A DNA stretch of 64,000 bases from a plasmid, in sequence record NZ_CP106961.1. One strand, given 5' to 3'. Positions 3,260 through 53,911 of this stretch are shown piece by piece. The notes below the pieces were generated by a model. That model did not search any database. It saw nothing but the letters and a program-made list of their open reading frames with translations, and was not told the DNA's origin. Each line of letters starts with the position of its first letter. Within the stretch, counting starts at the first letter, position 1. Position numbers and translations under genes: made by a program.

Positions 3260-4066
3260 TTAAATAATGTCTACTTCCACCAGAACCCCAAAGTGATCCG
3301 ATACAACCGGATAAAAATCGTTATTAAAAATCACCTGATGCTGCTTTACCACCATCGGTTGATTACTAAGAACCAAATCAATGCGTAGCGCTTGGCTATT
3401 TTGTTCCCAACCGTCAATATTTTTAATTACAGTAGTTCCGGAGTCTTTTATTTCTGCTATTTCATAACAATCTATCAAACCGCACTGTAATACATAATCA
3501 TAACCTTCATTGCGTATATGGCTTGGGTTGTTGAAATCGCCTAATAGAAAGCTCAACTCTGTTGATAATGTTGCCTTTATTCTGTTGAACTGGTCCTCAA
3601 ATGAGCTCTCTGAGTCACTCCACCAGCCGCAATGACAATTATAAAGATTGAAATCACCTCGTTGAGAAGTGACCTTAATACGCACTGCTCGCCTATGTTT
3701 CCAAAAGTTCACATCATAGTTATCACTTAGGTCAATGACCTCATGCTCGACAATCGGCAGTCGCGTCAAGAATGCCAGTCCCTCTTGATATACGTCATAA
3801 CTTTGATGAACGAAATCCCATGTAAGTTGGTAGTGATAGCCGTATTCCATGAGTTTTTTCTGTAATAAATATCCATAGTTATCAGCGAGCACGGTGTGAT
3901 TAGTTAATATATTGGCATCAACAGCCGAGCTATTTTGATGTTGATTCACTTCCTGTAATGCAACGACATCGCACCCTTGCTCGATAATGGCTTGCGCTAC
4001 CACATCCAACTTTTCTAGTTGTTTCTCTTCTTGCCAACTATGGGTATTTAGCGTCATTAACTTCAT
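3260..4066 (-). CDS. endonuclease/exonuclease/phosphatase (EEP) family protein
   Basis: 268-aa ORF with EEP-like motifs (VVALQEVN, SDHFGV at C-terminus); last gene of low-GC sugar operon. Confidence 0.55.
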   Translation of the reverse strand: MKLMTLNTHSWQEEKQLEKLDVVAQAIIEQGCDVVALQEVNQHQNSSAVDANILTNHTVLADNYGYLLQKKLMEYGYHYQLTWDFVHQSYDVYQEGLAFLTRLPIVEHEVIDLSDNYDVNFWKHRRAVRIKVTSQRGDFNLYNCHCGWWSDSESSFEDQFNRIKATLSTELSFLLGDFNNPSHIRNEGYDYVLQCGLIDCYEIAEIKDSGTTVIKNIDGWEQNSQALRIDLVLSNQPMVVKQHQVIFNNDFYPVVSDHFGVLVEVDII

Positions 4067-4152
4067 TTATTATTCACTTATTCATTGTAGCGAGTTAAAC
4101 GCAGCTCAAGGCTGCGTTTCTCGAGGTTATTTTATCTAGGGTAGAGAATGAA

Positions 4153-5781
4153 TTACGCAGGTTGTGCTGAAAACTTCTCAACTAATCTAGATTTAATGAC
4201 ATCCACTCCTGGACCATAAATAACTTGTACTCCCTGTTCTTTAATTACAGCACCAAGTGCTCCTGTCGGCTTCCATAATGCATATTCAGCAACCAACTGC
4301 GGGTCATTAACTGTAATGCGCAAGCGAGTCATACAAGCATCAATCTCAACAATATTGGCACGGCCACCTAAATTCTGAATAATAATGTCCATCTTCTCAT
4401 CTTCTGACATGGATTCTGAACTTTCATCGAGGTAGTTACCCATACGGCCCGGTGTTGGCAATTTAAATTTGACAATGAGCACACGGAATAATCCATAGTT
4501 AACACCAAAGAAAACAATAGAAACCAATGCGAAGCGAACCAAATCACCACCGATTCCCGCTGAAACCATCATAGGTATACGAGTGAGTAACTCAATCAAA
4601 CCAAAGGCATGTATACGTAGGTCCATCACATCGACCAACGCAAATGCAATCCCTGTTAATACCGCATGCGCAACATACAAAACAGGAGCAATAAACATAA
4701 ACATGAATTCAATAGGCTCTGTCACACCGGTTAATAACACAGCAAGACACGCAGATAAAAACATTGGCTTGTATTGTGCGCGCTTATCACTATCAACACA
4801 GTGATACATCGCAAGTCCAATACCAATCAATGAAGACGCTGCGATAATAACTTGGCCCGCTTTAAAACGTGCTGGATGCACCGTATCTAATAGATGTTGG
4901 TAAGTTGTCGGATCGCTTAATTTAAGATTATTTAAATCGCTAACCCAAGCAAGCCATAGTGGATCTTGACCATAAACACTTGCCCCCGCATTCACCCCTG
5001 TTAAAAGCTCATAAGTACCACCCAACTCGGTGTAATTCATTGGAATAGTTAAAGTGTGGTGTAAACCAAATGGCAGTAATAAGCGCTCTAACGTACCATA
5101 CAAGAAAGGAGCAGTGATCGGCGCAGTGTCTTTAGAGGTTGCAATCCATTGACCAAAATCATTAAGCGCACCTTGAATTAAAGGCCATACGATTGATAAA
5201 GCAAACGCAATAATCATCGAATAGAAAATAACAACAAAAGGTACAAAACGCTTACCGTTGAAAAATGCTAATGCCTGAGGTAAGCGAGCGAAGTCATGAT
5301 AACGGTTAAATAAGTTGGCACCTAAATAGCCAGACATAATACCGATAAACACACCCATATTTAGAGCAGGAGCACCCAAAATATTAGTGAAGAATTGAGA
5401 GACAGGTAGCTCAGAACCAAATAGGCTCATCACAACCGCCTCGGGATCACTGAGCATAGCGTTATCCACGCCTAATATAACCCCAGTGATACGGTTAATT
5501 AAGATGAAGGCGATCAGCGCGGCAAATGCTCCTCCTGCACGTTCTTTAGCCCATGATCCACCAATAGCGACAGCAAATAATAGGTGAAGATTAACTATGA
5601 TCCCCCAGCCTATGTTTTCCATAATAGCGCCTAGTGTTTCAATGGCACCAATACCACCAGCATACATTGCGACAACTTTACCGAGTGATATCATGATACC
5701 AGCGGCTGGCATCACCGCGATAACAACGATAAGGGATTTCCCAAATCGTTGCCAAAAATCAAAAGATAGTAACTGACTCAT
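4153..5781 (-). CDS. PTS glucose/alpha-glucoside-family EIICB component
   Basis: 542 aa; multi-TM EIIC domain followed by C-terminal EIIB domain with CMTRLR phosphocysteine motif. Confidence 0.8.
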   Translation of the reverse strand: MSQLLSFDFWQRFGKSLIVVIAVMPAAGIMISLGKVVAMYAGGIGAIETLGAIMENIGWGIIVNLHLLFAVAIGGSWAKERAGGAFAALIAFILINRITGVILGVDNAMLSDPEAVVMSLFGSELPVSQFFTNILGAPALNMGVFIGIMSGYLGANLFNRYHDFARLPQALAFFNGKRFVPFVVIFYSMIIAFALSIVWPLIQGALNDFGQWIATSKDTAPITAPFLYGTLERLLLPFGLHHTLTIPMNYTELGGTYELLTGVNAGASVYGQDPLWLAWVSDLNNLKLSDPTTYQHLLDTVHPARFKAGQVIIAASSLIGIGLAMYHCVDSDKRAQYKPMFLSACLAVLLTGVTEPIEFMFMFIAPVLYVAHAVLTGIAFALVDVMDLRIHAFGLIELLTRIPMMVSAGIGGDLVRFALVSIVFFGVNYGLFRVLIVKFKLPTPGRMGNYLDESSESMSEDEKMDIIIQNLGGRANIVEIDACMTRLRITVNDPQLVAEYALWKPTGALGAVIKEQGVQVIYGPGVDVIKSRLVEKFSAQPA

Positions 5782-15146: not shown

Positions 15147-15827
15147 ATGCAGCGTATTTTAATCGTTGAAGACGAACAAAAAACAGGTCGTTACCTGCAG
15201 CAGGGACTGGTTGAGGAAGGCTATCAGGCCGATCTCTTTAATAATGGCCGCGATGGTCTCGGGGCCGCGTCGAAGGGACAGTATGATTTGATAATACTGG
15301 ACGTGATGCTGCCTTTCCTCGACGGGTGGCAAATCATCAGCGCACTGAGGGAGTCCGGGCACGAAGAACCGGTCCTGTTTTTAACCGCAAAGGACAACGT
15401 GCGGGACAAAGTGAAAGGACTGGAGCTTGGCGCAGATGACTACCTGATTAAGCCCTTTGATTTTACGGAGCTGGTTGCACGTGTAAGAACCCTGCTGCGC
15501 CGGGCACGCTCGCAGGCCGCAACAGTCTGCACCATCGCCGATATGACCGTTGATATGGTGCGCCGGACCGTGATCCGTTCGGGGAAGAAGATCCATCTCA
15601 CCGGTAAAGAATACGTTCTGCTTGAGTTGCTGCTGCAACGCACCGGAGAAGTGTTACCCAGGAGTCTTATCTCGTCCCTGGTCTGGAACATGAATTTTGA
15701 CAGTGATACGAATGTGATTGATGTCGCCGTGAGACGTCTGAGAAGTAAAATTGATGATGACTTTGAGCCAAAACTGATCCATACCGTTCGCGGTGCCGGA
15801 TATGTCCTGGAGATCAGAGAAGAGTGA
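15147..15827 (+). CDS. pcoR: OmpR-family response regulator PcoR
   Basis: [10 protein letters not shown] receiver domain plus winged-helix. Confidence 0.9.
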
Positions 15828-17224: not shown

Positions 17225-17440
17225 TACCGTTATTCAGGAGAAACCCGGAAGGTGACAAAAATGTCATCGTTCAGTCACGCGATAAACAGAGGCGGTTTTT
17301 TATAATCAGCCATAAATCAGGACAGCGTGATAATTCAATCGCCCGGTTCCTGGCGTGATGATCAACCAGCCCTGAGATCAAATGCTTTCTCTGTTATAAG
17401 CATTGATTGTTCGGGTATGAAAACACCGGAGACCCAACCA

Positions 17441-17874
17441 TGAAAAAGATCCTTGTATCCTTTATTGCCATGATGGCTGTCGCTTCATCTGCCTGGGCTG
17501 CAGAGACAATGAACATGCATGACCAGGTAAATAATGCCCAGGCGCCTGCCCATCAGATGCAATCATCCGCTGAAAAAAGTGCAGTTCAGGGGGAGAGCAT
17601 GAAAATGATGGATATGAGCGGTCACGATCAGGCCGCAATGTCCCATGAAATGATGCAAAACGGCAATTCTGCTGCCCATCAGGACATGGCTGAAATGCAT
17701 AAAAAAATGATGAAATCCAAGCCAGCAGCTTCTAACGAAACAGCAAAATCATTTTCCGAAATGAACGAGCATGAGAAAGCCGCTGTTGTGCATGAGAAGG
17801 CGAATAATGGTCAATCTTCCGTTATTCATCAGCAGCAGGCGGAAAAGCATCGCAGCCAGATCACCCAGAATTAA
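17441..17874 (+). CDS. pcoE: periplasmic copper-binding protein PcoE (pcoE2)
   Basis: MKKILVSFIAMMAVASSAWA signal peptide; His/Met repeats; ORF-track start 17407 is an upstream extension. Confidence 0.85.
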
Positions 17875-41635: not shown

Positions 41636-41659
41636 GCCCGCTTCTGGCACAAAGCGGAC
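41636..41659. repeat. hairpin repeat family copy 1 (CCGCTT-CTGGCACA-AAGCGG)
   Basis: 7-8 bp stem, conserved loop CTGGCACA; 3' flank of vapC. Confidence 0.6.
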
Positions 41660-41686
41660 ATCCCCCTTTCTCCGTTCTGTCTGCCG

Positions 41687-42103
41687 TCAGTTAACCCAGT
41701 CTTCCAGCACCAGGCCCGGCACGCGTTCAAACTCTCTCACATTATTCGTCACGAGGACGGCACCAGCAGCAATCGCATGCCCGGCAATTGCCGTGTCGTT
41801 AGGGCCGATTGGCGTCCCGGCGAGGCGCAGCGCGACCTTAATGTCCGTGGTGGCGTCCACCGCAGCGCTGTCCCAGGGCAGGATGGCATCGAGGCGGGCG
41901 CAGAATGCGTCAACCAGCTGGATGTGGCGCGGGGAGGCTTTCGGGCCGGTGGCGCCGAAGCGCATCTCGGAATAGGTGATGGCCGAGATCACGATACGCT
42001 GGTTGCGCAGCACCGCCTGCTCCAGACGCTTCAGGACGGCTTCCGGCTGCTCGCGCATGATGAATGAGCAGATACAGGTGTCCAGCATATAGGTTTTATT
42101 CAC
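41687..42103 (-). CDS. vapC: PIN-domain toxin VapC (MvpT-like)
   Basis: 138 aa, MLDTCICSFIM N-terminus with conserved Asp; overlaps vapB by 4 bp. Confidence 0.85.
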   Translation of the reverse strand: MNKTYMLDTCICSFIMREQPEAVLKRLEQAVLRNQRIVISAITYSEMRFGATGPKASPRHIQLVDAFCARLDAILPWDSAAVDATTDIKVALRLAGTPIGPNDTAIAGHAIAAGAVLVTNNVREFERVPGLVLEDWVN

Positions 42104-42330
42104 AGATCAAATCGTCCTTCGTCGGTGACAACGTCCTCGCGCTCCGCCATAAAGTCCGGGTCTGCCTTCTCGAGCTGCGCGAACGAGCCCCAGGTCGGCC
42201 GGACGGGACGCAAAATAATGCTGTCCCCTTCCCGGACGATCTCCAGCTCGCTCACCCCCTCAAAATCGAGATCGCGGGGGAGGCGGATGGCGCGGTTGTT
42301 GCCATTTTTAAAAATGGATACGGTTCTCAT
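42100..42330 (-). CDS. vapB: SpoVT/AbrB-type antitoxin VapB (MvpA-like)
   Basis: 76 aa, MRTVSIFKNGNNRAIRLPRDL. Confidence 0.85.
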   Translation of the reverse strand: MRTVSIFKNGNNRAIRLPRDLDFEGVSELEIVREGDSIILRPVRPTWGSFAQLEKADPDFMAEREDVVTDEGRFDL

Positions 42331-42527
42331 TTACGTTACACCCCATAATGCATGCGCCCGATACTCTGGGCATGGCCTGTGAAAAGCACAGGCGAATAAA
42401 AAAACACCACCTACCATTGCATAGGTATAGTATATGCAGATGTGAGGCATATGTATAGAGTCTAGATATGCAGATGTATGGCATATGGATATGGTCAGCC
42501 TATACGGAGTATTCTCTTTTTTGCGCA

Positions 42528-42553
42528 GATCCGAAAAAAGGTAAAGTCGGATC
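42528..42553. repeat. GATCCG-AAAAAAGGTAAAGT-CGGATC palindrome (copy A)
   Basis: second copy at 50705..50730. Confidence 0.5.
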
Positions 42554-42829
42554 TGGACTGAGTAACCGTATGGAGGGGGATGGAAATACGGTAAGAGGGA
42601 GTCAAAGCAAAAGGCAGGTAGGAACGAAAGGTCCGCCTTGAGCGAGGAGCGGAACTTCACTCATACTCCCTCAGTTGATTGGATTAAAATTATCGTGCTG
42701 TCACCCACTCAGCTTCGCTGTAAGGGTGACCAGCGAAAATTAAGCACAAATTTCTGAGATACAGGTTTTGCCGTCGTAAGACGAAATATTGGGCAGACAG
42801 TATTCGATCTCAGAGTCAAGCTCACTTAC

Positions 42830-43219
42830 TTATTTATCGACCATCAGCGGTACATCTTCCATTCTTGCGCCGCCGTTCAGCCGGAATGTGATAGTGATAA
42901 TTTTCGGCAACGAAGTGGGTTCCAGGCCACACCACTTATTCATTGCACGGAGCGTTTCTTTCTCAAACACATCGGCGGGCTGCGCTGATAAGATTATGAT
43001 GTTTTCCGCACACCCTTTTGTATTCACAGTGTATGAAGCCCTTACAACCCCCTCAATCCGGCCAGCCTGTGCTTTTGCAGGATAATAGGGCTGGTTCACC
43101 GTGGCGGATTTACCTGCCTTTGTGTCTCCAGGCGCATGTTGCTGGCCCGACAGTGTTTGCTTGTGAACACACCCTGTTGCCAGCATAGCCAGCGTTATAG
43201 CCATCATTAAACGTTTCAT
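42830..43219 (-). CDS. small lipoprotein with TonB C-terminal-like domain
   Basis: lipobox LAMLATGC, then YPAKAQAGRIEGVVRASYTVNTKG TonB_C-like; start at 43219 (ORF-track start 43288 is an extension). Confidence 0.55.
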   Translation of the reverse strand: MKRLMMAITLAMLATGCVHKQTLSGQQHAPGDTKAGKSATVNQPYYPAKAQAGRIEGVVRASYTVNTKGCAENIIILSAQPADVFEKETLRAMNKWCGLEPTSLPKIITITFRLNGGARMEDVPLMVDK

Positions 43220-43383
43220 TCTTTTCCTTGATAAAGCAGCCACCTGTAGCATCCCCAGCAAAATGAATACCGGACGTATTATTAGCAACTCGATAATAAT
43301 ACGTATTCATAGAAAGGTGCATGTGTGAGTATTCCTGCAAAACTAACCATCAACCTTTAGAGAGTCTCTGGCAACCCCAACTT

Positions 43384-43405
43384 CCGCTTCTGGCACAAAG
43401 CGGAC
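43384..43405. repeat. hairpin repeat family copy 2 (TCCGCTT-CTGGCACA-AAGCGGA)
   Basis: between TonB-like gene and GIY-YIG gene. Confidence 0.6.
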
Positions 43406-43588
43406 CAGTGCGCAGAGCTAGGTCCGATAAGAGCGAGGAGCAGACGTTGACCATTCTGTTCAACGTCTTCAGACTCAGCCCTTAACTCTCAGTTCTTCGC
43501 GAATTGGACCTTGAAAGTAGATGCTACCTTTATGGTAAAGATCAACTGACTCATGGTGATGAGTCAGTTAAAATCTGTAAAAAAAATC

Positions 43589-44329
43589 TTAGACAATCCC
43601 AACTTTTACAAATGGACTTCCGTGACTGCGTGTTTTTTTGATTAATTTACCCACATACAAGTCTCTAACTTCTTTAGCTGCAATTCGGCCAACAAACTCG
43701 GAGCGATTGGTATTCATAGTAATGTTTAAATCACGCGTAAAGTATTGTTGAGAGCCAGCCTTCACCCAGCACTGTATTTCATAGACCTCCATGACAAGCC
43801 CGCCATAAGTTGCGTAAGCAAATTTAAGTCTCTCGTCTTTAGGGATATTTGCCCAAATGCCGCGAGTGGACTCATATAGCTCCAATGCGCTCATACCAGA
43901 CTTGTATGTACTGTTTAAAAGAAAGGCGAGCCCGGCATGTTCACATGCGATTTCGGTTTCTTCTTTGAGTAGCAAGTGCTGGAGTTCATCAAGCGTGATG
44001 CGTCCCATAAGAGAGCTACTTCCTCGAACTTTATTAGTAAGTTCTCCCACACCTAAGAGATCGATACATGTTGCCTCAACAAGTTTGGCCGTTGATTCAT
44101 CCATTCCATGGCGAAGAATATCGATACCCAAGTTTTTTCTTTCTAAAAGCTCTTTGATCCGCTCAGATTTCGGAGATTCATCAGGACGTTTGATATGGTC
44201 AAGACAGCGATCGGACTTCCCCTTTCCAATGTAAAAAGGCTTCTTGAACTCATCTTCCTTGTCATAAAAGGCATATACATAGTACTTAGCCAAATCCAAA
44301 GATTTTGTATATTTTGATAAATCCCTCAA
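43589..44329 (-). CDS. GIY-YIG nuclease-domain protein with uncharacterised C-terminal domain
   Basis: N-terminal YVYAFYDKEDEFKKPFYIGKGKSDRCLDH matches GIY-YIG signature; ~40% GC; 246 aa. Confidence 0.6.
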   Translation of the reverse strand: MRDLSKYTKSLDLAKYYVYAFYDKEDEFKKPFYIGKGKSDRCLDHIKRPDESPKSERIKELLERKNLGIDILRHGMDESTAKLVEATCIDLLGVGELTNKVRGSSSLMGRITLDELQHLLLKEETEIACEHAGLAFLLNSTYKSGMSALELYESTRGIWANIPKDERLKFAYATYGGLVMEVYEIQCWVKAGSQQYFTRDLNITMNTNRSEFVGRIAAKEVRDLYVGKLIKKTRSHGSPFVKVGIV

Positions 44330-44453
44330 TGTTTGTTTCCTTAGCTACCGATGTTGAAATTAATTTCATTATCGGCATGACGTAATAGAACTTAAGTCCT
44401 GGTTGAGAAAGTGAACTCCTTACAATTTATTCTTGTGCCACGATGTTAGTCAC

Positions 44454-44476
44454 GTCCGCTCCTGGCACAAAGCGAC
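44454..44476. repeat. hairpin repeat family copy 3 (GTCCGCT-CCTGGCACA-AAGCGAC, degenerate)
   Basis: downstream side of GIY-YIG gene. Confidence 0.5.
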
Positions 44477-44907
44477 CTTTGTCATGAATCCTGACTCACT
44501 GTCTGAGGCAGGAGCAGGCCCGCTGAATGCGGCTTTAGCGGCAGGAAGCGTTAGATAACGTTGAGCTGAACGGCGCCGTAAGCCCGGCTCCGCCGGTTAT
44601 ATTCTGATATATGGCGCTCCCCATTCCTGTCAGTGTATCGAATCTCACAGGTGAACCAGCCGCAGACTGCTTCCATAGGCTGCAGGTTAAAACGTTTGCT
44701 TACTTTCTGAATCATGAGGGCTTTTCTGGTGGCCCAATATCCGGTTAACGATAACTTTCAGAAAATGAACCCTGCCTCTCTGGGATGATTAGGATTAACT
44801 AATCATCTTATGGAATTGTAAAATCCCGTATGAAATTAAAAAATCTGTGCGGGATTGCCGTTTTATTAAGGCTGCACTGCAGTCAATTAAAGAGAGGGAG
44901 ACTGAAT

Positions 44908-45330
44908 ATGCGTGTTCGCCTGACCACTGAAAACGATGCTATATCACTGATTACTATCGATATTGTTGCCCAGAGCCAGCCAAAAGGTGCGGCGCAAATC
45001 CGCATCTGGTGTGCCTGGTCTGTCTGTTATATTGCCGAACTGCAGGGAATAGCGATGGGATATGGCGTGCTGAACTACCATTTCTTCGGCTACGGCTTTA
45101 TTGAAATGCTGATGGTAGGGGAACACTACCGCCGCAGGGGTATCGGTCTGGCGTTGATTGCAGCATTGAAGTCCCGCTGCCAGCACCCGAAGCTGTTCAC
45201 CTCCACCCATCGTTCTAACCTGCCAATGCAACGGCTGCTGTTGAACGCCGGATTTATCCCCAGCGGTCAGGTCGACAATCTCGATGACGGGGACCCGGAA
45301 GCGATATTTTTTATTCCAGCCTTAACGTAG
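44908..45330 (+). CDS. GNAT-family N-acetyltransferase
   Basis: RRRGIGLALIAAL acetyl-CoA binding motif; start MRVRLTTE. Confidence 0.7.
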   Translation: MRVRLTTENDAISLITIDIVAQSQPKGAAQIRIWCAWSVCYIAELQGIAMGYGVLNYHFFGYGFIEMLMVGEHYRRRGIGLALIAALKSRCQHPKLFTSTHRSNLPMQRLLLNAGFIPSGQVDNLDDGDPEAIFFIPALT

Positions 45331-45448
45331 CGCAGAGAGAAGGGTACACAGACACCCATATCCAGGGTGCCAGGCTCAGCGAGGCCAGGGTTTTAGCGAC
45401 CTCTGTATCTAACGGGAAGTGCCTCTCTGAGAAGGTTCTGGCAGTGAA

Positions 45449-45715
45449 TCAGGCAAAAACTGGCCGGGTGTAAGGTAAATCATCTTTCTGATAAATCGGG
45501 TCTTTACCTTCAGGCTGCGTCTGAGATTGCTGCCGATAATTGCTAACTGTTTTACGCAAATATTCCCGCAACGCTACCGGCTGCTGCCGCTCGGCTTGAT
45601 GCGGCATCATCCTGACCTTTTCCCGGCTGTCTTTGACCGTCATCCCCGGCCAGCATTCCTCAACGTATCCGATAAGAAACCTCCCGATTGCCTTGCTGTC
45701 GATTGCGTTATCAAT
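45449..45715 (-). CDS. hypothetical protein
   Basis: ORF only; overlaps spurious 5' extension of fdhA ORF. Confidence 0.3.
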   Translation of the reverse strand: MDNAIDSKAIGRFLIGYVEECWPGMTVKDSREKVRMMPHQAERQQPVALREYLRKTVSNYRQQSQTQPEGKDPIYQKDDLPYTRPVFA

Positions 45716-45789
45716 CATGGCAGCTAAGCTTAGTTGACACTTACCCGGTCGGGCAGCCACACCTTTCCGGCCGCAAGCAGGAGAAGATC

Positions 45790-46923
45790 ATGAAAGCAGT
45801 TATTTACAACGGTCCCTATGATGTAAAAGTTAAAGACGTGCCGGATGCAAAAATTGTTCGCCCCACCGATGTGCTTGTCCGCATTACCACCACCAATATT
45901 TGTGGATCGGATTTGCACATGTACGAGGGTCGGACCAGCTTTGAGCAGGGACGTATTTTGGGGCACGAAAACCTGGGTGAGGTGGTTGAAATTGGCTCAG
46001 GAGTGGAGCGTGTTAAGGTCGGTGACTATGTCTGTCTGCCATTTAATGTCGGATGCGGTTTTTGCGAGAATTGTGAAAAAGGTCTGACCGGTTTTTGCCT
46101 CACCACCAATCCCGGTACTGTGGGCGCGGCCTATGGTTTTGCTGAAATGGGCTCCTGGGAGGGTGGTCAGGCGGAACTGCTTCGGGTCCCCTTTGCAGAC
46201 TTTAACTGCCTGGTGCTTCCGCCTGACGCAGTAGAAAAAGAAGATGATTATGTGATGCTCTCTGACATTTTCCCTACCGGCTGGCATGCGACAGAACTCG
46301 CCGGATTAAAGCCTGGCGAAAGCGTAGCCATTTACGGCGCGGGGCCGGTGGGTCTGATGGCCGCACACTCAGCCATGATAAAAGGCGCTTCACAGGTATT
46401 TGTAGTGGATACACACCAGGACCGTTTAGCGCTGGCAGAGAAAATGGGGGCGACGGGCATCAATGCGACCGGCGATGAAGCCGTGCAACGAATTCTCGAC
46501 TTAACTGACGGACGCGGCACTGACTGTGGCTGTGAATGCGTGGGCTATCAGTGCTGTAACAAACATGGCCATGAAGATAATTCGGTCACTATGAACAGCC
46601 TCGTTGCATCAACCAAAGCAACCGGGGGAATTGGTGTGGTTGGCGTGTTTATCCCGCAGGATCCGGGAGCTGCATCAGACCTTTCCAAAGAAGGTAAGAT
46701 GCCGTTTGATTTCGGCAGTTTTTGGTTTAAAGGACAGTCAATCCGCACCGGCCAGGCGAACGTCAAAGCCTATAATCGTCAGCTGGCCCGTCTGATCCAT
46801 CAGGGTAAAGCCAGCCCGGGCGGCATAATCTCACACCGTCTTTCACTTGCTGAGGCGCCTGAGGGATATAAGCACTTTGACGATCGCGATGAGGGATGGA
46901 CGAAGGTTATCCTTAAGCCTTAA
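45790..46923 (+). CDS. fdhA: zinc-dependent glutathione-independent formaldehyde dehydrogenase
   Basis: MKAVIYNGPYDVKVKDV start, GHE zinc site, C-x2-C-x2-C-x7-C structural zinc, GAGPVG NAD fold. Confidence 0.8.
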   Translation: MKAVIYNGPYDVKVKDVPDAKIVRPTDVLVRITTTNICGSDLHMYEGRTSFEQGRILGHENLGEVVEIGSGVERVKVGDYVCLPFNVGCGFCENCEKGLTGFCLTTNPGTVGAAYGFAEMGSWEGGQAELLRVPFADFNCLVLPPDAVEKEDDYVMLSDIFPTGWHATELAGLKPGESVAIYGAGPVGLMAAHSAMIKGASQVFVVDTHQDRLALAEKMGATGINATGDEAVQRILDLTDGRGTDCGCECVGYQCCNKHGHEDNSVTMNSLVASTKATGGIGVVGVFIPQDPGAASDLSKEGKMPFDFGSFWFKGQSIRTGQANVKAYNRQLARLIHQGKASPGGIISHRLSLAEAPEGYKHFDDRDEGWTKVILKP

Positions 46924-47279
46924 CTGACGCTGATCGGTTATAAAAGTTAAATCGGAACAATTAAACCGGAACAATGTAGAAATATCGACGGGATACCATT
47001 GCGTATCCTGTCATAATATTTATCTTCTGCTGCCAGGCTCGCCCCTGTATCTATTGTGATGTTTAATGACGCATTATGAATATTATCAGGACCTGTGAAT
47101 AGCGCCCGATCTTCTTCAGGCATAAACGAAATAAACGCTATTCATGTAATAACGATGAGAGTGGGTGAGAATGAAGTGCGATATTATAAGGATTCTATGT
47201 AACATCATGTCGGGATAGATCCAGAGTCAAAGCCACCTGAGTATTACAGGTGGCTTTTAAACGATTCTGAGCTGCGTTT

Positions 47280-48416
47280 TTACCTTAAGCTGGTTTTGAA
47301 AAACTGTTCAAACCTGGCAAAAGGGATCTTACCTGCAGCGTTGTCGTATAAGTCCACGTGGTTTGCGCCGGGGACGATCACAAGCTCTTTTTCAGTGCTG
47401 CCAACCGCTTTGTAGGCATCTTCTGCAAAATAGCGCGAGTGCGCTTTTTCACCTGTAACAATCAACACAGGAATAGTGATTTCATTTGCGTAGCTAAGCA
47501 GCGGCATATTCATAAACGACAAGGGCATCGTTGCATTCCATGCGCCATTAGAGTTAACAGAACGCCCATGGAAGCCGCGTGGCATTCTGTAATAATCAAA
47601 AAACTCTTTCAGTACCGGGTGTGGATTCGCGGGTAATGTTTCCGGCAGAATTCGCTCAGAAGCGCTTACGCTGCCATTCTTATCCACATTAATATCGTGA
47701 CTACCGCGGGCGATAGTTCCGCTTTCAGCATCTTTCCAGCGCTGCTCGTTCAGGTACTGTAATACGGCACGGCGATCGGCTGTTGAATAACGGTCTTTGC
47801 CATCACCAACGCCATGTCCCATCGCCCGGCTCATGTCGTACATCACGCTGGTCGCAACTGCTTTTACGCGTGTATCCATCGCCGCCGCATTGAGTGCCAT
47901 GCCTCCCCAGCCGCAAATACCGAGTAATCCAATACGATGGCGATCCACCTCTTTTTGTAATCCAAGGAAATCAACCGCCGCGCTAAAGTCCTCAGTGTTG
48001 ATATCCGGAGAGGCGACATTACGCGGATAGCCACCACTTTCACCCGTGTAAGAAGGATCGAATGCCAGCGCAACAAATCCCTGTTCGGCCAGGGTCTGTG
48101 CATACAGGCCGCTTGATTGCTCTTTGACCGCACCGAAAGGACCACTTAATGCAATCGCAGCCAGTTTACGTTCGCCCCGGTTTTTGGGGATGTAAAGATC
48201 CCCTACTAATATGATCCCGTAACGGTTCTGGAATGCCACCTTGCGATGATCAACCTTATCGCTCTCTGCAAAGGTTTTATCCCATTTTTCTACCATTGAA
48301 ACAGGCGAGTTCGGATTAGATGTGTCAGCATAACTCATTGTCGTAACTCCACTTAATGATACGCATAGCAGCATAGCGGGTAGCGCGGCTGTCAGCTTTC
48401 TGGTGAAAACATTCAT
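47280..48416 (-). CDS. secreted alpha/beta-fold hydrolase
   Basis: signal peptide, GICGWGG nucleophile elbow (G-x-C/S-x-G), 378 aa. Confidence 0.65.
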   Translation of the reverse strand: MNVFTRKLTAALPAMLLCVSLSGVTTMSYADTSNPNSPVSMVEKWDKTFAESDKVDHRKVAFQNRYGIILVGDLYIPKNRGERKLAAIALSGPFGAVKEQSSGLYAQTLAEQGFVALAFDPSYTGESGGYPRNVASPDINTEDFSAAVDFLGLQKEVDRHRIGLLGICGWGGMALNAAAMDTRVKAVATSVMYDMSRAMGHGVGDGKDRYSTADRRAVLQYLNEQRWKDAESGTIARGSHDINVDKNGSVSASERILPETLPANPHPVLKEFFDYYRMPRGFHGRSVNSNGAWNATMPLSFMNMPLLSYANEITIPVLIVTGEKAHSRYFAEDAYKAVGSTEKELVIVPGANHVDLYDNAAGKIPFARFEQFFKTSLR

Positions 48417-48615
48417 TTAAATTCCCCTGAAAAAGAAAAGTGAGGTACCGGTTTCATACGGAGAGTACTGCTGTGCTTTGATGCAATGCGCTCATTATAG
48501 GTAGCAGAAATAGTGCTGATTAGAGGGTAAAAATTGCTAGGATTAATAGCATATTGTTATAAATGAAGGGCCGCAGCAGACATCATTTGCGGCCAGATAT
48601 TCTGAGGACGCGCAA

Positions 48616-49500
48616 ATGGCAAAACGGGAAAACTATAATGAGCTCTACTTGTTTATGCAGGTGGTGCGGGAGGGCAGTTTCACTGCAGCGGCACATCGTC
48701 TTGGACTTGCACAATCAGGCGTTAGTCGTTCTGTCCGTGAACTTGAAGAAAGGCTGGGTATACAGCTTCTGGTTCGCACTACGCGCAGGCTGTCGTTAAC
48801 ACAGGCAGGTGAGCAACTGTATCAGACAACAGAATCCGGATTTGATGCTTTAGATACGGGTTTTGCCACGCTGGCGTATTACCGGAATACCCCGTCCGGT
48901 ACGGTACGCATCAATGCCAGCCAGCATGCTATTGATAAAGTTCTTTTACCGAAGCTGGCGCTATTTAAGCACCGTTACCCCGATATCAGGCTTGAACTCA
49001 TCAGTGAAAGCCGGTTCGTCGATATTATCGCTGAGCGGTTTGATGCCGGCGTGCGGCTGGGGCCGGAGGTAGGACAGGGCATGGTCGCGGTGCGTATTAC
49101 ACCTGACATGGAGATGGTTGTTGTAGCTACGCCCGAGCATTTTCGTCGCTATGGCTTTCCACAAACACCGGCTGATTTAGTGATTCATCCTTGTATAGCC
49201 TACCAGTTTGCCGATGGTAGCCTTTATCAGTGGGAACTCCTTCAGGACGGTAAAAAAATAACGCACCGACCACAAGGACAGTGGGCCTTTTCTGACAGCT
49301 ACATGGAAGCAAAAGCAGCCAGACTGGGGCTGGGGCTGGCTTATGTCCCGGAGGAACTGGTCGCTGATGATTTAGAGCAAGGCAATCTTATCAGGGCGTT
49401 GCCACGTTACAGCCAGCGCCTGGAAGGTTCATTCCTGTATTATCCTCACCGCAATGTGTCGCCGGCACTGAGAGTCGTCATTGATATACTGAAAATCTGA
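48616..49500 (+). CDS. LysR-family transcriptional regulator, divergent from hydrolase
   Basis: N-terminal HTH LFMQVVREGSFTAAAHRLGLAQSGVSRSV. Confidence 0.8.
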   Translation: MAKRENYNELYLFMQVVREGSFTAAAHRLGLAQSGVSRSVRELEERLGIQLLVRTTRRLSLTQAGEQLYQTTESGFDALDTGFATLAYYRNTPSGTVRINASQHAIDKVLLPKLALFKHRYPDIRLELISESRFVDIIAERFDAGVRLGPEVGQGMVAVRITPDMEMVVVATPEHFRRYGFPQTPADLVIHPCIAYQFADGSLYQWELLQDGKKITHRPQGQWAFSDSYMEAKAARLGLGLAYVPEELVADDLEQGNLIRALPRYSQRLEGSFLYYPHRNVSPALRVVIDILKI

Positions 49501-49551
49501 AGTTTAGCTATTTATATTCTTCGTTGTTCCGCTCTTTGTTATCGGAATAAC

Positions 49552-49575
49552 GTCCGCTTATGGCACTAAGCGGAC
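49552..49575. repeat. hairpin repeat family copy 4 (GTCCGCTTA-TGGCACT-AAGCGGAC)
   Basis: with the following ~45 bp homologous to the 3' flank of vapC at 41636..41700. Confidence 0.6.
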
Positions 49576-49607
49576 ATTCTTACCTTCTGCATTCTTAATG
49601 TCGTCAG

Positions 49608-49880
49608 TTCACCCAGTCTTCCAGCACCAGGCCCGGCACCCGCTCAAACTCTCTCACATTATTCGTCACCAGAACCGCACCGGCGGCAATGGCGTGCCCG
49701 GCGATAGCCGTGTCGTTCGGGCTGATTGGCGTCCCGGCGAGGCGCAGCGCGACCTTTATATCCGTGGTCGCATCAACCGCGCCGAGGCCTTAGGACCGGT
49801 GGCACCGAAGCGCATTTCGGAGTATGTAATTGCCGAGACATCGATGCGCTGGTAGCGCAGCACTGCATGCTCCAGGCGCA
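49608..49880 (-). pseudogene. vapC: vapC remnant (5'-truncated, internal ~80-bp deletion)
   Basis: nucleotide-level homology to 41690..42060 (same 3' flank TCAGTTCACCCAGTCTTCCAGCACCAGGCCCGGCAC) but missing segment and no start. Confidence 0.6.
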
Positions 49881-50927: not shown

Positions 50928-52193
50928 TCAGATACCCACACCTCCCGTGCCAAAGGCCTCGCTGTGAATGCGCTCTTTTGCAATGCCCAGCGCCAGCAGG
51001 GAACGGTACTGTTCGTGCATAAACGGCACTGGCCCGCACAGATAAAAATCGGCGTCTGGCGGCAGATATTCCGCCGGTACCGCGCTGAGATCGAGCCGGC
51101 CCTGCACATGATAATCTTCCCCGAGCACCTCAGTTTCCTTCGCCTGCTCATAGGCGATAAAAATATGCAGATTACTGTTCTGCTTAGAGAGAGCCGCCAG
51201 TTCCTGGCGCAGGGCATGAACATCGGAACTGCGGGCCGCATGAAGGAAAAATATCTGCTTCCTGTCCTGAATCTGTGGCGCGTGGTCCGCTTTCAGGGAG
51301 GTATTCGGATCAGCTATTTCTGCCAGCAGATGGTGTGTCATGGACATCATGGGTGTCAGGCCGACGCCGGCACTGATAAGCACATTGTCCACTTCGGGAT
51401 TTAATAAAAAGAAGTTGCCCGCCGGCGCGCTCAGTTCCACCGTGTCGCCTTCACTGACGGCATTGTGGAGGGTTGATGAGACATAACCCGGATCCTGTCC
51501 TTCCGCACGCGGATCTTCGCGTTTCACGGAGATACGCAAGTAACCGGCCCCGGGCTTGCCGGATAAGCTGTACTGTCGCGGCTGTTTCAGGCCCAGTTCA
51601 GTAACAAAGACGCGCAGCGTCACATACTGTCCCGGCCGGTAATCCGGCAGGGCCTGTCCGTCTGCGGGCGTCAGATAAAAAGAGGAGATCTCCTCGCTTT
51701 CTTTTACTTTTTTGCTAACATTAAAATCGCGCCAGCCAAGCCAGCTGCCGGGTGTGGTTCGGCGCTCATCATAAAGCCTTTTCTCGGCTCCGATAAATAT
51801 GTCGGCCAGCTCCTGATACGCGGCACCCCAGGCCCCGATGAGTGGATTATCCATCGGGACGGAAAGCACTTCGCTGATGGAATGCAGTAAATTCTCACCG
51901 ACAATACTGTAGTCCGGGGCCTTAATATTCAGGCTCACATGTTTATGGCAGATCAGCTCAATGACCGGCGCCAGAACCCCGGGCTCGTCAATATTCTCTG
52001 CATAGGCCAGCACCGCACCTGCCAGCGCTTTCGCCTGCGCGCCGCTGCGCTGATGACCCATATTAAAGACTTCCTGCAAATCAGGATTATTCCGTAACAT
52101 CCTTTTATAGAAGTAATCCGTTAACGCAACGCCATTTTCCTTCAGTACCGGAACGGTATCTTTAACCAGTTGTTTCTGCTCTTGAGTTAGCAT
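50928..52193 (-). CDS. hmp: flavohaemoglobin / nitric oxide dioxygenase
   Basis: globin domain MLTQEQKQLVKDTVPVL..., FAD-binding RQYS, NAD-binding GxGxxP; ORF-track start 52328 is an extension. Confidence 0.85.
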   Translation of the reverse strand: MLTQEQKQLVKDTVPVLKENGVALTDYFYKRMLRNNPDLQEVFNMGHQRSGAQAKALAGAVLAYAENIDEPGVLAPVIELICHKHVSLNIKAPDYSIVGENLLHSISEVLSVPMDNPLIGAWGAAYQELADIFIGAEKRLYDERRTTPGSWLGWRDFNVSKKVKESEEISSFYLTPADGQALPDYRPGQYVTLRVFVTELGLKQPRQYSLSGKPGAGYLRISVKREDPRAEGQDPGYVSSTLHNAVSEGDTVELSAPAGNFFLLNPEVDNVLISAGVGLTPMMSMTHHLLAEIADPNTSLKADHAPQIQDRKQIFFLHAARSSDVHALRQELAALSKQNSNLHIFIAYEQAKETEVLGEDYHVQGRLDLSAVPAEYLPPDADFYLCGPVPFMHEQYRSLLALGIAKERIHSEAFGTGGVGI

Positions 52194-52409
52194 GCGATCC
52201 TCCGTGGGGTTTAATTCAGTAACAGTCATGGTCCTGATAAGCATAAACCATGCTGGGAAGTGTGACCCGGCGTAAAAATCCGGTACAGCCGCTGTAATCT
52301 TTCTGCCAGAAAATGGAACCGGACGCATATTTTTATACAGGGCTGATGGTGAAGATATGCGGTCCGACCGCTATGAATAAAATATGGTATAGAGTGATTT
52401 CATGTTGTC

Positions 52410-52685
52410 ATGCACAGGGAAATGAAGATGAGGGCATTACTGGCGGAGCTGGTTGATATTATTGCGGAGCAGCATAAGTCTGAAAAGGAAGTGATTATTC
52501 AGACTGAAGCACTGAATCTGGTTGTAGCTGCCATTCTCATGCGACTGGATGACAGCGTTCGTATGCAACTGAAAAGTGAGATTGATGAGGCTTTCGCTTC
52601 ACAGCATGGAGGTCACCCCTCATTTATGGATGAAACGCACATACTCCAGCGTGCTGTGGAAGAACTGTTTAATTTTCATAGGTGA
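52410..52685 (+). CDS. hypothetical protein whose stop codon TGA is supplied by the first bases of IS3-family copy 2
   Basis: 91-aa ORF ending at 52683..52685 = TGA of the IS end TGAATCGCC. Confidence 0.4.
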   Translation: MHREMKMRALLAELVDIIAEQHKSEKEVIIQTEALNLVVAAILMRLDDSVRMQLKSEIDEAFASQHGGHPSFMDETHILQRAVEELFNFHR

Positions 52686-53911
52686 ATCGCCACGGGTTTA
52701 ACAGACACCTCAGAGTCATTTAAGATGGCTTAAAGAGAGGTGCCCATGAGCGGTAAGCGTTATCCCGAAGAGTTTAAAACTGAAGCAGTCAAACAGGTTG
52801 TTGATCGCGGTTATTCTGTTGCCAGCGTTGCAACACGTCTCGATATCACCACCCACAGCCTTTACGCCTGAATAAAGAAGTACGGTCCGGATCCTTCCAT
52901 TAATAAAGAACAGTCAGATGCTCAGGCCGAGATCCGCCGTCTCCAGAAAGAGCTGAAGCGGGTTACCGACGAACGGGACATATTAAAAAAAGCCGCGGCG
53001 TACTTCGCAAAGCTGTCCGACTGAGGTACGCCTTTATCCGTGACAACTCCTGTTGCTGGCCTGTTCGCCTGCTCTGTCGGGTGCTGGATGTTCATCCCAG
53101 TGGTTTTTACGCCTGGCTTCAGCAGCCGCATTCACAACGCCATCAGGCAGACCTGAGACTGACAGGACAGATTAAACAGTTCTGGCTGGAATCGGGATGC
53201 GTCTATGGTTATCGCAAAATCCATCTGGATCTGCGTGACAGCGGGCAACAGTGCGGAGTGAACAGAGTCTGGCGACTGATGAAACGTGTCGGGATAAAGG
53301 CTCAGGTCGGATACCGGAGCCCGCGGGCACGTAAAGGCGAGGCCAGTATCGTGTCGCCCAACAGGCTCCAGCGACAGTTCAATCCGGATGCTCCGGATAA
53401 GCGTTGGGTAACGGACATCACCTACATCAGGACCCGCGAAGGCTGGCTGTATCTTGCCGTGGTTGTTGATCTGTTCTCACGCAAAATTATCGGCTGGTCC
53501 ATGCAATCCCGGATGACAAAGGACATTGTCCTGAACGCACTGCTGATGGCTGTATGGCGCCGTAATCCCCAAAAACAGGTGCTGGTTCATTCGGATCAGG
53601 GCAGTCAGTACACAAGCCATGAGTGGCAGTCGTTCCTGAAATCACACGGCCTGGAGGGCAGCATGAGCCGTCGCGGTAACTGCCATGATAATGCGGTTGC
53701 AGAAAGCTTTTTCCAGTTGTTGAAACGCGAACGGATAAAGAAAAAGAGCTACGGAACGCGGGAAGAAGCCCGCAGTGATATTTTTGATTACATCGAAATG
53801 TTTTATAACAGTAAGCGTCGGCATGGTTCCAGCGATCAGATGTCACCGACAGAATATGAAAACCAGTATTATCAACGGCTCGGAAGTGTCTAGATTATCC
53901 GTGGCGATTCA
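52683..53911 (+). mobile_element. IS3-family insertion sequence copy 2 (1229 bp), orfA inactivated
   Basis: same ends as copy 1; orfA carries TGG to TGA at 52869..52871 (copy 1 has TGG at 31662..31664); no matching 3-bp flanks (AGG / GAT). Confidence 0.85.
53081..53893 (+). CDS. IS3-family transposase OrfB (copy 2)
   Basis: 270 aa, few substitutions relative to copy 1. Confidence 0.8.
   Translation: MLDVHPSGFYAWLQQPHSQRHQADLRLTGQIKQFWLESGCVYGYRKIHLDLRDSGQQCGVNRVWRLMKRVGIKAQVGYRSPRARKGEASIVSPNRLQRQFNPDAPDKRWVTDITYIRTREGWLYLAVVVDLFSRKIIGWSMQSRMTKDIVLNALLMAVWRRNPQKQVLVHSDQGSQYTSHEWQSFLKSHGLEGSMSRRGNCHDNAVAESFFQLLKRERIKKKSYGTREEARSDIFDYIEMFYNSKRRHGSSDQMSPTEYENQYYQRLGSV

Follow-up and report, generated by a model that had tools for sequence, protein, structure and literature searches.

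Paired 24-bp sites of two centre classes at module boundaries of a Leclercia-type plasmid: probable core sites for module exchange

Introduction

The pdif modules of Acinetobacter plasmids are bounded by XerC/XerD sites of 24-28 bp and carry genes for toxin-antitoxin systems, resistance and metabolism. The XerC/XerD sites have inverted arms, a 6-bp centre and alternating orientation, and linkage of the recombinase to the modules is lacking. The pdif modules and the cassette arrays of integrons are the closest functional analogues of the short repeats described here, which lie in a stretch of 64,000 nucleotides of a plasmid (NZ_CP106961.1; the whole stretch is called the window). An earlier note, made from the sequence of the window, had pointed out four short hairpin repeats at module junctions. 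As the comparison record for the whole plasmid, pLEC-5e18 of Leclercia sp. LSNIH3 (NZ_CP026390.1, 195 kb) was used, in which the window corresponds to the reverse complement of 93,891-157,890.

About half of the Escherichia coli genomes contain P2-like prophages, and the two hotspots of these prophages form an important reservoir of anti-phage defence systems. Nilsson, Karlsson and Haggard-Ljungquist, in Mol Biol Evol in 2004, are said to have described inverted repeats on either side of two variable regions of P2-like coliphages, Z/fun and tin-old (TO). According to a review that summarises this work (PMC8987985), the inverted repeats around fun allow site-specific exchange. The mechanism of the rapid gene exchange at the P2 hotspots is stated as unknown by Rousset (2022) and in a 2026 paper in Nucleic Acids Research (PMC13586616), and both find it puzzling that plasmids, but not P4, exchange defence genes with P2.

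Here we report that the repeats of the window belong to a family of 24-bp sites, which have two classes of centre and a fixed mutual orientation and at which homology between replicons ends. The repeats are probably core sites for site-specific recombination used for the exchange of modules, with the enzyme supplied in trans. They look like part of a widespread and mostly unnoticed system, which would move modules among plasmids, P2-type prophages and genomic islands. More tentatively, the sites and a recombinase of 200 residues may make up a natural system of cassette exchange in Proteobacteria that has not been characterised before, with two incompatible site classes in fixed mutual orientation. 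Such a system would drive the turnover of the P2 defence hotspots and of plasmid and island modules, and would explain why P2 trades with plasmids and not with P4. The 2004 paper aside, the 24-bp core, the two centre classes, the orientation rule, the plasmid and chromosomal arrays and the bracketed recombinase gene appear to be new relative to the accessible literature. No paper on the site sequences was found by a full-text literature search on sequence strings.

Results and discussion

Sites in the window

The window was searched with the 20-mer CCGCTTCTGGCACAAAGCGG, allowing up to three mismatches. The four plus-strand repeats noted earlier were all found, with no others, and 100 dinucleotide shuffles gave no match. 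Each repeat is a site of 24 bp, in which the 9-bp inverted arms GTCCGCTyy and rrAGCGGAC enclose a 6-bp centre. Two types of centre are present, TGGCAC (class A) and TCGCTC (class B). The four repeats are of class A and are located on the plus strand: A1 at 41636-41659 (GCCCGCTTCTGGCACAAAGCGGAC), with its 3' side towards vapC; A2 at 43382-43405 (TTCCGCTTCTGGCACAAAGCGGAC); A3 at 44454-44477 (GTCCGCTCCTGGCACAAAGCGACC), the inner arm of which (AAAGCGACC) is one G short; and A4 at 49552-49575 (GTCCGCTTATGGCACTAAGCGGAC), with a perfect 9-bp stem. Two sites with the centre TCGCTC on the minus strand had been overlooked, B1 at 42631-42654 (minus-strand sequence TTCCGCTCCTCGCTCAAGGCGGAC) and B2 at 43422-43445 (minus-strand sequence GTCTGCTCCTCGCTCTTATCGGAC), the latter with a degenerate inner arm. 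As B2(-) lies next to A2(+), the second of the four repeats is one half of an A(+)/B(-) doublet. The linker of this doublet (43406-43421, 16 nt; the gap is 18 nt in 22-mer coordinates) is an 'empty' inter-cassette junction. The order in the window is thus A1(+), vapC and vapB, B1(-), the TonB-like gene, A2(+), B2(-), the GIY-YIG gene, A3(+), the GNAT-LysR genes, A4(+) and a vapC remnant.

The sites A1, A2 and A4 form significant DNA hairpins (dG of -6.4, -7.0 and -8.7 kcal/mol, z of -2.4, -3.2 and -5.4, respectively). No significant DNA hairpin fold was seen for A3, B1 and B2, the inner arms of which are degenerate. In the rest of pLEC-5e18 (131 kb outside the window), two degenerate sites were found and no more; thus the cluster in the window is local and there is no uniform background. 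Two readings of the motif that would refute the note, an even or random density and a confinement to the flank duplicated with vapC, were considered beforehand, and neither holds. A1 and A4 do have a common diverged flank, which includes the vapC 3' end (83% identity over 260 bp), and A2 and A3 show no similarity to the other copies beyond the site itself.

Site family and orientation rule

Sites were collected by pattern scans of IMG/VR (more than 120 contigs, a lower bound) and of one genome per species (at least 120 further loci). The site consensus is AAyGT-CCGCTyy-T[G/C]GC[A/T]C-AnAGCGG-AC. The first set of 135 sites comprises 77 of class A and 58 with B-type bases at both discriminating positions of the centre, and A/B hybrids number 2/135. 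Overall, three hybrid centres are present in about 290 sites, the third coming from the scan of one genome per species. The 9-6-9 architecture, two inverted arms around an asymmetric centre, was seen over 135 and 494 sites; this is the layout of tyrosine recombinase core sites of the lox/FRT/dif type. The same 24-mer is conserved from Enterobacterales to Alphaproteobacteria. No Rfam family matched in the window, in P2 or in the site-rich loci.

The earlier note had read the stems as co-varying under selection for structure. Over the family, the arms are conserved as sequence, and the minority variants of one arm occur without compensation in the other (position 3 T together with position 20 A: 7 observed, p=0.44), so that the claim of covariation is not borne out. 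The degenerate copies retain the outer arm and the centre and have lost the folding. Conservation of the arms without covariation is the pattern expected of protein-binding half-sites, and it favours recognition of half-sites over structure alone.

The orientation was analysed for 296 distinct neighbouring site pairs. Neighbours of different class are inverted in 201 cases and direct in 2, and neighbours of the same class are direct in 86 cases and inverted in 7. The A(-)/B(+) pairs, with their 5' sides inward (n=116), enclose cargo, and the median gap is 1347 bp. The A(+)/B(-) pairs, with their 3' sides inward, are mostly doublets: the gap is 30 nt or less in 71/85, mostly 16-20 nt in 22-mer coordinates. 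The resulting array pattern is A> <B cargo A> <B cargo. The TonB-like and GIY-YIG cassettes of the window, each lying from B(-) to A(+), follow this arrangement of cargo between an inverted site pair.

Module boundaries and chimeric junctions

The GNAT-LysR module is present at 99.6% identity in plasmids of at least six genera, namely Salmonella (IncHI2), Klebsiella, Enterobacter, Pantoea, Mixta and Acinetobacter. The shared stretch begins at 44452/44454, at A3, and stops at 49577/49583, at A4. The right junction is chimeric: the left half CCGCTTATGGCAC is constant, and the right half (TAAGCGG, ACAGCGG or AAAGCGG) varies with four different right flanks, including that of locus L229. The left junction combines the rare inner arm AAGCGACC, which is kept with the module, with a variable outer arm. 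IncFIB plasmids of Enterobacter, Citrobacter and Serratia carry the GIY-YIG cassette at 99.9% identity. What they have in common with the window is exactly 43422-44474 (B2 to A3), and the junction sites B2 and A3 are likewise chimeric. The GIY-YIG gene had been described as bracketed by two copies of one repeat, like a cassette. A cassette it is, bracketed by B2(-) and A3(+) and not by two class A copies. The proposal that the repeats are recombination or attachment sites at module junctions gains support from the ends of homology within the sites and from the chimeric junctions in other replicons.

Two plasmids show additional features at the GIY-YIG cassette. In the Serratia marcescens plasmid NZ_CP020506.1 (L258, about 3788-5012), the IS30-family insertion sequence ISCfr4 sits within the B site bounding the cassette, and therefore the homology there begins at window 43432, within B2, and not at 43422. 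In the Enterobacter IncFIB plasmid NZ_CP072963.1 (L257, about 4958-4986), a cer-like Xer site, GGTGCGCGTAATGAGGCGTTATGGTAAAT, is located 13 bp from the 3' side of the bounding B site; its sequence is clearly different from that of the B site. The same flank is present in an E. coli plasmid (L249).

To locate the switch points, pairs sharing one flank were compared among 494 site contexts. Of 249 pairs with a common 3' flank only, 145 have their last difference at site position 7 or 8, immediately 5' of the centre. In pairs with a common 5' flank only, the first difference is at positions 15-24 in 10/15. These differences suggest that the exchange takes place in or beside the centre. Together with the chimeric junctions, the comparison would place the exchange between site positions 9 and 15.

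Distribution of the sites

In phage P2, an A(-) site is located at 15335-15357, 61 bp past gene G, and a B(+) site at 17433-17455, ahead of the FI promoter. The pair brackets fun(Z). In the P2-like prophages of IMG/VR, each of the two classical hotspots (G-FI and A/orf91-cos/Q) lies between sites. In these sites, the 3' half and the adjoining flank are constant with the phage backbone, and the 5' half varies with the cargo. In GenBank AJ512685 (the Z region of P2-EC67), the annotated 'left inverted repeat' ends in an A site, and the 'right inverted repeat' begins with a B site. The inverted repeats annotated at the P2 hotspots in 2002-2004 are of the same sequence family as the sites of the window; the annotated span covers 90-113 bp of conserved phage backbone, whereas the core found here is 24 bp. 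No A or B site was found in the satellite phage P4. The exchange of P2 with plasmids, and not with P4, matches this distribution of the sites. The 24-bp site pair and the candidate enzyme described below make the question of exchange at the P2 hotspots directly testable.

A class A 30-mer is present in 3,036 plasmids of PLSDB, including 1,888 of Klebsiella, 359 of Enterobacter, 190 of Escherichia and 153 of Pantoea, and Pantoea megaplasmids carry up to 24 copies. In some 3,000 plasmids, most of them from Klebsiella, Enterobacter and E. coli and some with IncHI2 or IncFIB replicons, the sites thus show where modules end, which provides a new means of defining and predicting mobile cargo. In E. 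coli, sites were found in 2,643/5,426 complete genomes, on mobile elements, with a median of 1 and a maximum of 5 per genome.

The Pantoea ananatis plasmid NZ_CP020945.2 carries about nine small cassettes parted by A/B doublets: GNAT, GNAT, NUDIX with DUF6886, ASCH, metallophosphoesterase, acetyltransferase with XRE, AraC with MFS, and DUF2268. No recombinase is annotated within 50 kb around this array. On the chromosome of E. coli CFT073, the array reads A(-), cassette, B(+), recombinase gene, A(-), cassette, B(+) and so on to a B(+)/A(-) doublet, an iron-uptake cassette and B(+). The A(-) site that opens the CFT073 array (L345 10490-10511, about 269.47 kb) has the 3' flank ACTGTCAGATTAG. In P2-like prophages, this same backbone sequence comes after the A site that lies past the gene for tail-fibre assembly. 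The 24.7 kb examined around the array carry no annotated P2 structural genes.

The exact class A hairpin GTCCGCTTTTGGCACAAAGCGGAC is also present in same-strand tandem arrays with a 45-bp period on contigs of Xanthobacteraceae and Pseudolabrys metagenome-assembled genomes (L136 627-739; L190 1266-1378; L232 985-1096 and 7585-7697; L193 1881-1992). Further loop types, TGGGGGT and TGACCC, occur in these arrays in direct orientation. The arrays are found on many contigs of the same assembled genome and therefore look like a high-copy family similar to repetitive extragenic palindromes (REPs). Clustering of open reading frames (ORFs) gave no common gene beside the alphaproteobacterial hairpin arrays; the top 'protein' cluster was a spurious translation of the hairpins.

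Candidate tyrosine recombinase

The neighbouring genes were scanned with Pfam, using 123 ORFs from 17 site-rich enterobacterial loci, three of which had been chosen for carrying an integrase gene. In total 100 families were matched, of which 25 are listed. The cargo among these 25 families comprises LysR regulators, transporters, oxidoreductases, GNAT proteins and ASCH proteins. Two of the 25, Phage_integrase and RepB, are recombinase or transposase families by name; RepB is a plasmid-partition protein and not a recombinase of that kind.

The remaining candidate is a protein of 200 residues, which matches PF00589 alone. The residues R51, K79, H148, R151, H174 and Y183 (the R, K, H-x-x-R, H and Y of the catalytic set) are invariant. 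Among solved structures, the catalytic domain of XerD is the nearest (E=0.004). From its sequence, the protein would be little more than a catalytic domain, and its similarity to any characterised recombinase is marginal.

Eight loci of the recombinase gene were aligned. Upstream, a B(+) site lies about 60 nt before the start codon (GTCCGCTyy-TCGCTC-ATAAGGGAC). Downstream, in 7/8 loci, a terminator-like hairpin just past the stop codon runs into an A(-) site (...GCAGCCCT-GTGCCA-ggAGCGGAC); in L233 no such site is present behind the gene. Conservation between the loci begins and ends exactly at the two site centres, and the outer arms and the sequences beyond differ everywhere. As the gene is bounded by the centres of B(+) and A(-), it occupies the slot of a doublet linker, as vapBC does in the window. 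The recombinase module is present in 770-979 of the 5,426 E. coli genomes, mostly on the chromosome, with homology that runs from the first base of the B centre to the A centre or the outer arm. The CFT073 protein is WP_001305361, and another copy of the recombinase is carried by L249.

The bracketing is also seen in distant relatives. In 80 metagenome homologues (59-97% identity), an arm motif that faces outward is over-represented near -100 and between +35 and +50. The exact 7-mer of the arm was found in 12/75 upstream and 10/77 downstream regions, and in 0/75 and 0/77, respectively, in the swapped orientation. With one mismatch allowed, the motif is present in 56-60% of the loci, against 20-26% in the swapped orientation. 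According to these features, the 200-residue tyrosine recombinase is a probable enzyme of the A and B sites.

A homologue of the small recombinase, unannotated and with an in-frame stop codon, is located on pMNOD01 of Methylobacterium nodulans (L252 4968-5555). It is probably a pseudogene, and it was left out of the recombinase alignment because of the in-frame stop. The only tyrosine recombinase encoded on pLEC-5e18 itself, at 84805-85797 of the record, belongs to another family and was rejected as the enzyme of the sites.

Comparison with known systems

The A/B sites resemble the pdif system in their short inverted arms with a 6-bp centre, in the alternation of neighbouring sites, with modules between sites of alternating orientation, and in the lack of linkage to a recombinase. 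On direct comparison, the dif/cer/psi arms (GGTGCGCATAA-N6-TTATGTTAAAT) have no resemblance to the A/B arms. The A/B system differs from pdif further in its two centre classes, in its frequent A/B doublets and in its dedicated 200-residue candidate in place of XerCD.

With integrons the sites share arrays of small, often single-gene cassettes (GNAT, NUDIX, ASCH and toxin-antitoxin genes) between imperfect palindromes. An A/B doublet, like attC, consists of two inverted simple sites, spans about 65 bp overall and, read from the sequences, would fold with two mismatches. The integron cores RYYYAAC and GTTRRRY are absent from the site consensus. No intI, attI and Pc platform was found beside the arrays, and no integrase is annotated in the 50 kb around the Pantoea array or near the pLEC-5e18 sites. 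Unlike integron cassettes, the A/B cassettes contain genes in both orientations, and exchange would occur in both simple sites rather than at a single point. The candidate recombinase lacks the IntI-specific insertion; the integron-integrase models of NCBIfam give 16-17 bits against cut-offs of 265-435.

The likeness to REPs and to bacterial interspersed mosaic elements (BIMEs) lies in the short palindromes, in the inverted doublets, whose two members differ slightly as do the Y and Z REPs of the E. coli BIMEs, and in the high-copy arrays of some Alphaproteobacteria. The A/B sites differ from REPs and their REP-associated tyrosine transposases (RAYTs) in the median of one copy in E. coli, in the lack of a GTAG flank and in the absence of a Y1 transposase among the 25 listed neighbour families. 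The suggestion that the repeats are REP-like is accordingly at odds with their copy number. On these comparisons, the sites lack the defining features of integron attC sites, of Xer/dif/pdif sites, of REP/RAYT elements and of terminators.

Two further comparisons concern the mode of exchange and the enzyme. In cassette exchange with heterospecific lox or FRT sites, two classes differ only in the spacer, and a segment is swapped by two independent crossovers without deletion or inversion, as we suppose for A and B. That system is a laboratory design, whereas the A/B system would be natural, with an incompatibility of A and B that is judged solely from the rarity of hybrids. A natural incompatible site pair with a recombinase of 200 residues could serve as a compact tool for genome engineering. 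Invertases of the FimB/FimE type are similar to the candidate in size (about 200 residues), and the candidate has a weak match to NF007371, a tyrosine-type DNA invertase (E=8e-6, far below the cut-off). The A/B loci differ in having no evident invertible segment and flanking sites of different classes.

Proposed mechanism

The recombinase would bind the two inverted 9-bp arms and cut the site, and the strands would be exchanged in the asymmetric 6-bp centre. As the A and B centres differ at two positions, recombination is expected within each class and not between A and B. We infer this incompatibility because hybrid centres are rare. With the A sites in one direction along the replicon and the B sites in the opposite one, the DNA would be split into swappable modules, and a pair of crossovers, A x A at one end and B x B at the other, would exchange a module between two molecules. 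Since A and B are almost always inverted, the segment between them would not be deletable by its own sites, but would be replaceable. A module between direct A sites, such as GNAT-LysR, would be excised or inserted as a circle by a single A x A event. As the recombinase gene is not on the plasmid, the enzyme would act in trans from the chromosome, a prophage or another plasmid.

Several points weigh against this mechanism. Some concern the sites. The degenerate A3, B1 and B2 may be inactive fossils. The right arm is also different in 67/249 of the pairs with a common 3' flank, so that mutation or off-centre exchange occurs too. The centre is invariant within a class, and the exchange point is therefore not resolvable below about 7 nt. 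When the window is compared with the related Leclercia plasmid pIMP-Z96-1 (L255 5553), the divergence begins near 42552, 80 bp ahead of B1, where there is no A or B site. According to this breakpoint and the right-arm differences, the sites are the main route of rearrangement here, yet not the sole one. The Xanthobacteraceae arrays, which look REP-like, are not explained by module exchange.

The other points concern the enzyme. A cognate recombinase gene was not found on pLEC-5e18. The inner arms that flank the recombinase gene are degenerate (ATAAGGGAC and AGGGCTGCT), and its distant homologues have other centres. Of the three close plasmid loci of the recombinase, two have canonical sites nearby, and L250 has only the two that bracket the gene. 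Near the close plasmid homologue and the Alpha- and Betaproteobacterial homologues L250-L253, no canonical A or B 22-mer was found, and only diverged arm-plus-centre motifs are present at the gene ends. The recombinase gene behaves like one more module, and its association with the sites could thus be hitch-hiking.

Alternative explanations

The best-surviving alternative is that the palindromes have another primary role or none, and that modules are exchanged there by short-homology or illegitimate recombination, without a dedicated recombinase, as the replicons have no other sequence in common. Such exchange would rely on RecA working at its lower limit, on annealing proteins of phages or on a switch of template at hairpins. 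Chimeric junctions are equally expected from exchange driven by homology, two central mismatches would also suppress A x B, and there is no site-linked recombinase on this plasmid or in the Pantoea array. An efficient RecA substrate is longer than 24 bp, and the site is below this length. Short homology also leaves unexplained the palindromic arms, the orientation rule of A and B (201/203) and the conservation of the 24-mer between Enterobacterales and Alphaproteobacteria. The rare arm variants are linked to their own flank, so that exchange appears to be limited to the centre, and a tyrosine recombinase gene is site-bracketed even in distant homologues. Illegitimate recombination is named among the possible mechanisms in the 2026 study of the P2 and P4 hotspots (PMC13586616). 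On balance, we regard this alternative as unlikely.

A less probable explanation, which we consider doubtful at best, is that the sites act as single-stranded hairpins and are nicked in the loop by a HUH-type enzyme (a RAYT, a TnpA like that of IS200/IS605, or a rolling-circle Rep), the joining of nicked hairpins giving the chimeras. At rolling-circle origins, nicking by a HUH Rep gives an exchange located in the loop, and the location of the exchange here fits such nicking. Hairpins are indeed formed by A1, A2 and A4, the A(+)/B(-) doublets resemble REP doublets and BIMEs, and tandem hairpin arrays reach high copy in the Xanthobacteraceae assemblies. The arms show no compensatory covariation, however, and the degenerate sites are unfolded yet form junctions. 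E. coli, with its median of one copy, holds no REP-like population, and the sites have no conserved GTAG-type flank, the 5' flank consensus being AAyGT. A hairpin-recognising transposase had been suggested in advance, and nothing among the 25 listed Pfam families of the 123 neighbouring ORFs points to such an enzyme, neither a Y1 nor a HUH transposase being present. The P2 origin, which is nicked by the HUH protein A, has an unrelated sequence; it was rejected as an identity of the sites on the same ground. The ends of IS200/IS605 or IS91/ISCR elements were also rejected, as the modules carry no such transposase.

It is very improbable that the sites function at the RNA level, as mini-terminators or transcript-stabilising stem-loops between operons. 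The sites are intergenic, and on the transcribed strand the vapC stop codon precedes A1 by 30 nt. A T-tail is absent at 6/6 sites, which lends no support to the earlier idea of mini-terminators, and the terminator scan caught a 13-nt stem inside B1 only and no A site, with a regional total not above chance. There is no Rfam match, the neighbouring genes lie in both orientations relative to the sites, and the homology breakpoints within the sites and the orientation rule would be left unexplained. A sigma-54 promoter was rejected by eye: TGGCAC is the -24 element, but it is wrongly spaced from a GC and is missing from class B. An origin by chance or from a single local duplication, for which the vapC flank duplicated at the first and fourth copies might speak, can be practically dismissed in view of the shuffles without a match, the unrelated flanks of the second and third copies and the thousands of family members elsewhere.

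Modules and neighbouring genes

The vapBC module (41660-42630, minus strand) lies between the 3' sides of A1 and B1, with vapC at 41687-42103 and vapB at 42100-42330. This position is the slot held by the recombinase gene at other loci. The vapC 3' end (tcagt[tg]aacccagtcttccag) is found 25-30 nt from the 3' side of A sites at the first and fourth window copies and at the unrelated loci L168 4055, L210 6061, L221 438 and L245 490. The combination of an A site with vapBC may thus recur in the arrays as a stabilising module. The second vapC-type module, a remnant, is located at 49576-49880 on the minus strand and shows 83% and 81% identity to 41638-42029.

The TonB-like cassette (42655-43381, minus strand) carries a gene for a TonB C-terminal domain (TonB_C) and runs from B1(-) to A2(+), with the 5' sides of both inward; its arrangement equals that of the cargo in the P2 hotspots. 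This cassette has not been seen to move on its own; it is present only in three near-identical Leclercia plasmids. The GIY-YIG cassette (43446-44453, minus strand) carries a gene for a LEM-3-like nuclease (PF22945). The GNAT-LysR module (44478-49551) comprises genes for GNAT, a small ORF, glutathione-independent formaldehyde dehydrogenase, alpha/beta hydrolase and LysR, and it has direct A sites on both sides.

In pIMP-Z96-1, a four-helix-bundle gene, A1 and vapBC are common with the window, and genes for a SIR2-family protein and an ATP-binding protein follow. This pair looks like an anti-phage defence system. The Acinetobacter venetianus plasmid CP060163.1 (L004) and a plasmid of Pantoea sp. 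PSNIH1 (L003) have the same gene order and coordinates over the first 6.5 kb or so, including two A sites and one B site. The identity across orders reflects either a recent inter-order transfer or a misassigned record. The Rfam scan of the window at gathering thresholds reported no group II intron RNA family. The ltrA gene for a group II intron reverse transcriptase/maturase (WP_001189111.1) is present on the plasmid in two identical copies, one at about 54.1-55.6 kb of the window (record 102285-103793) and the other at record 51763-53271.

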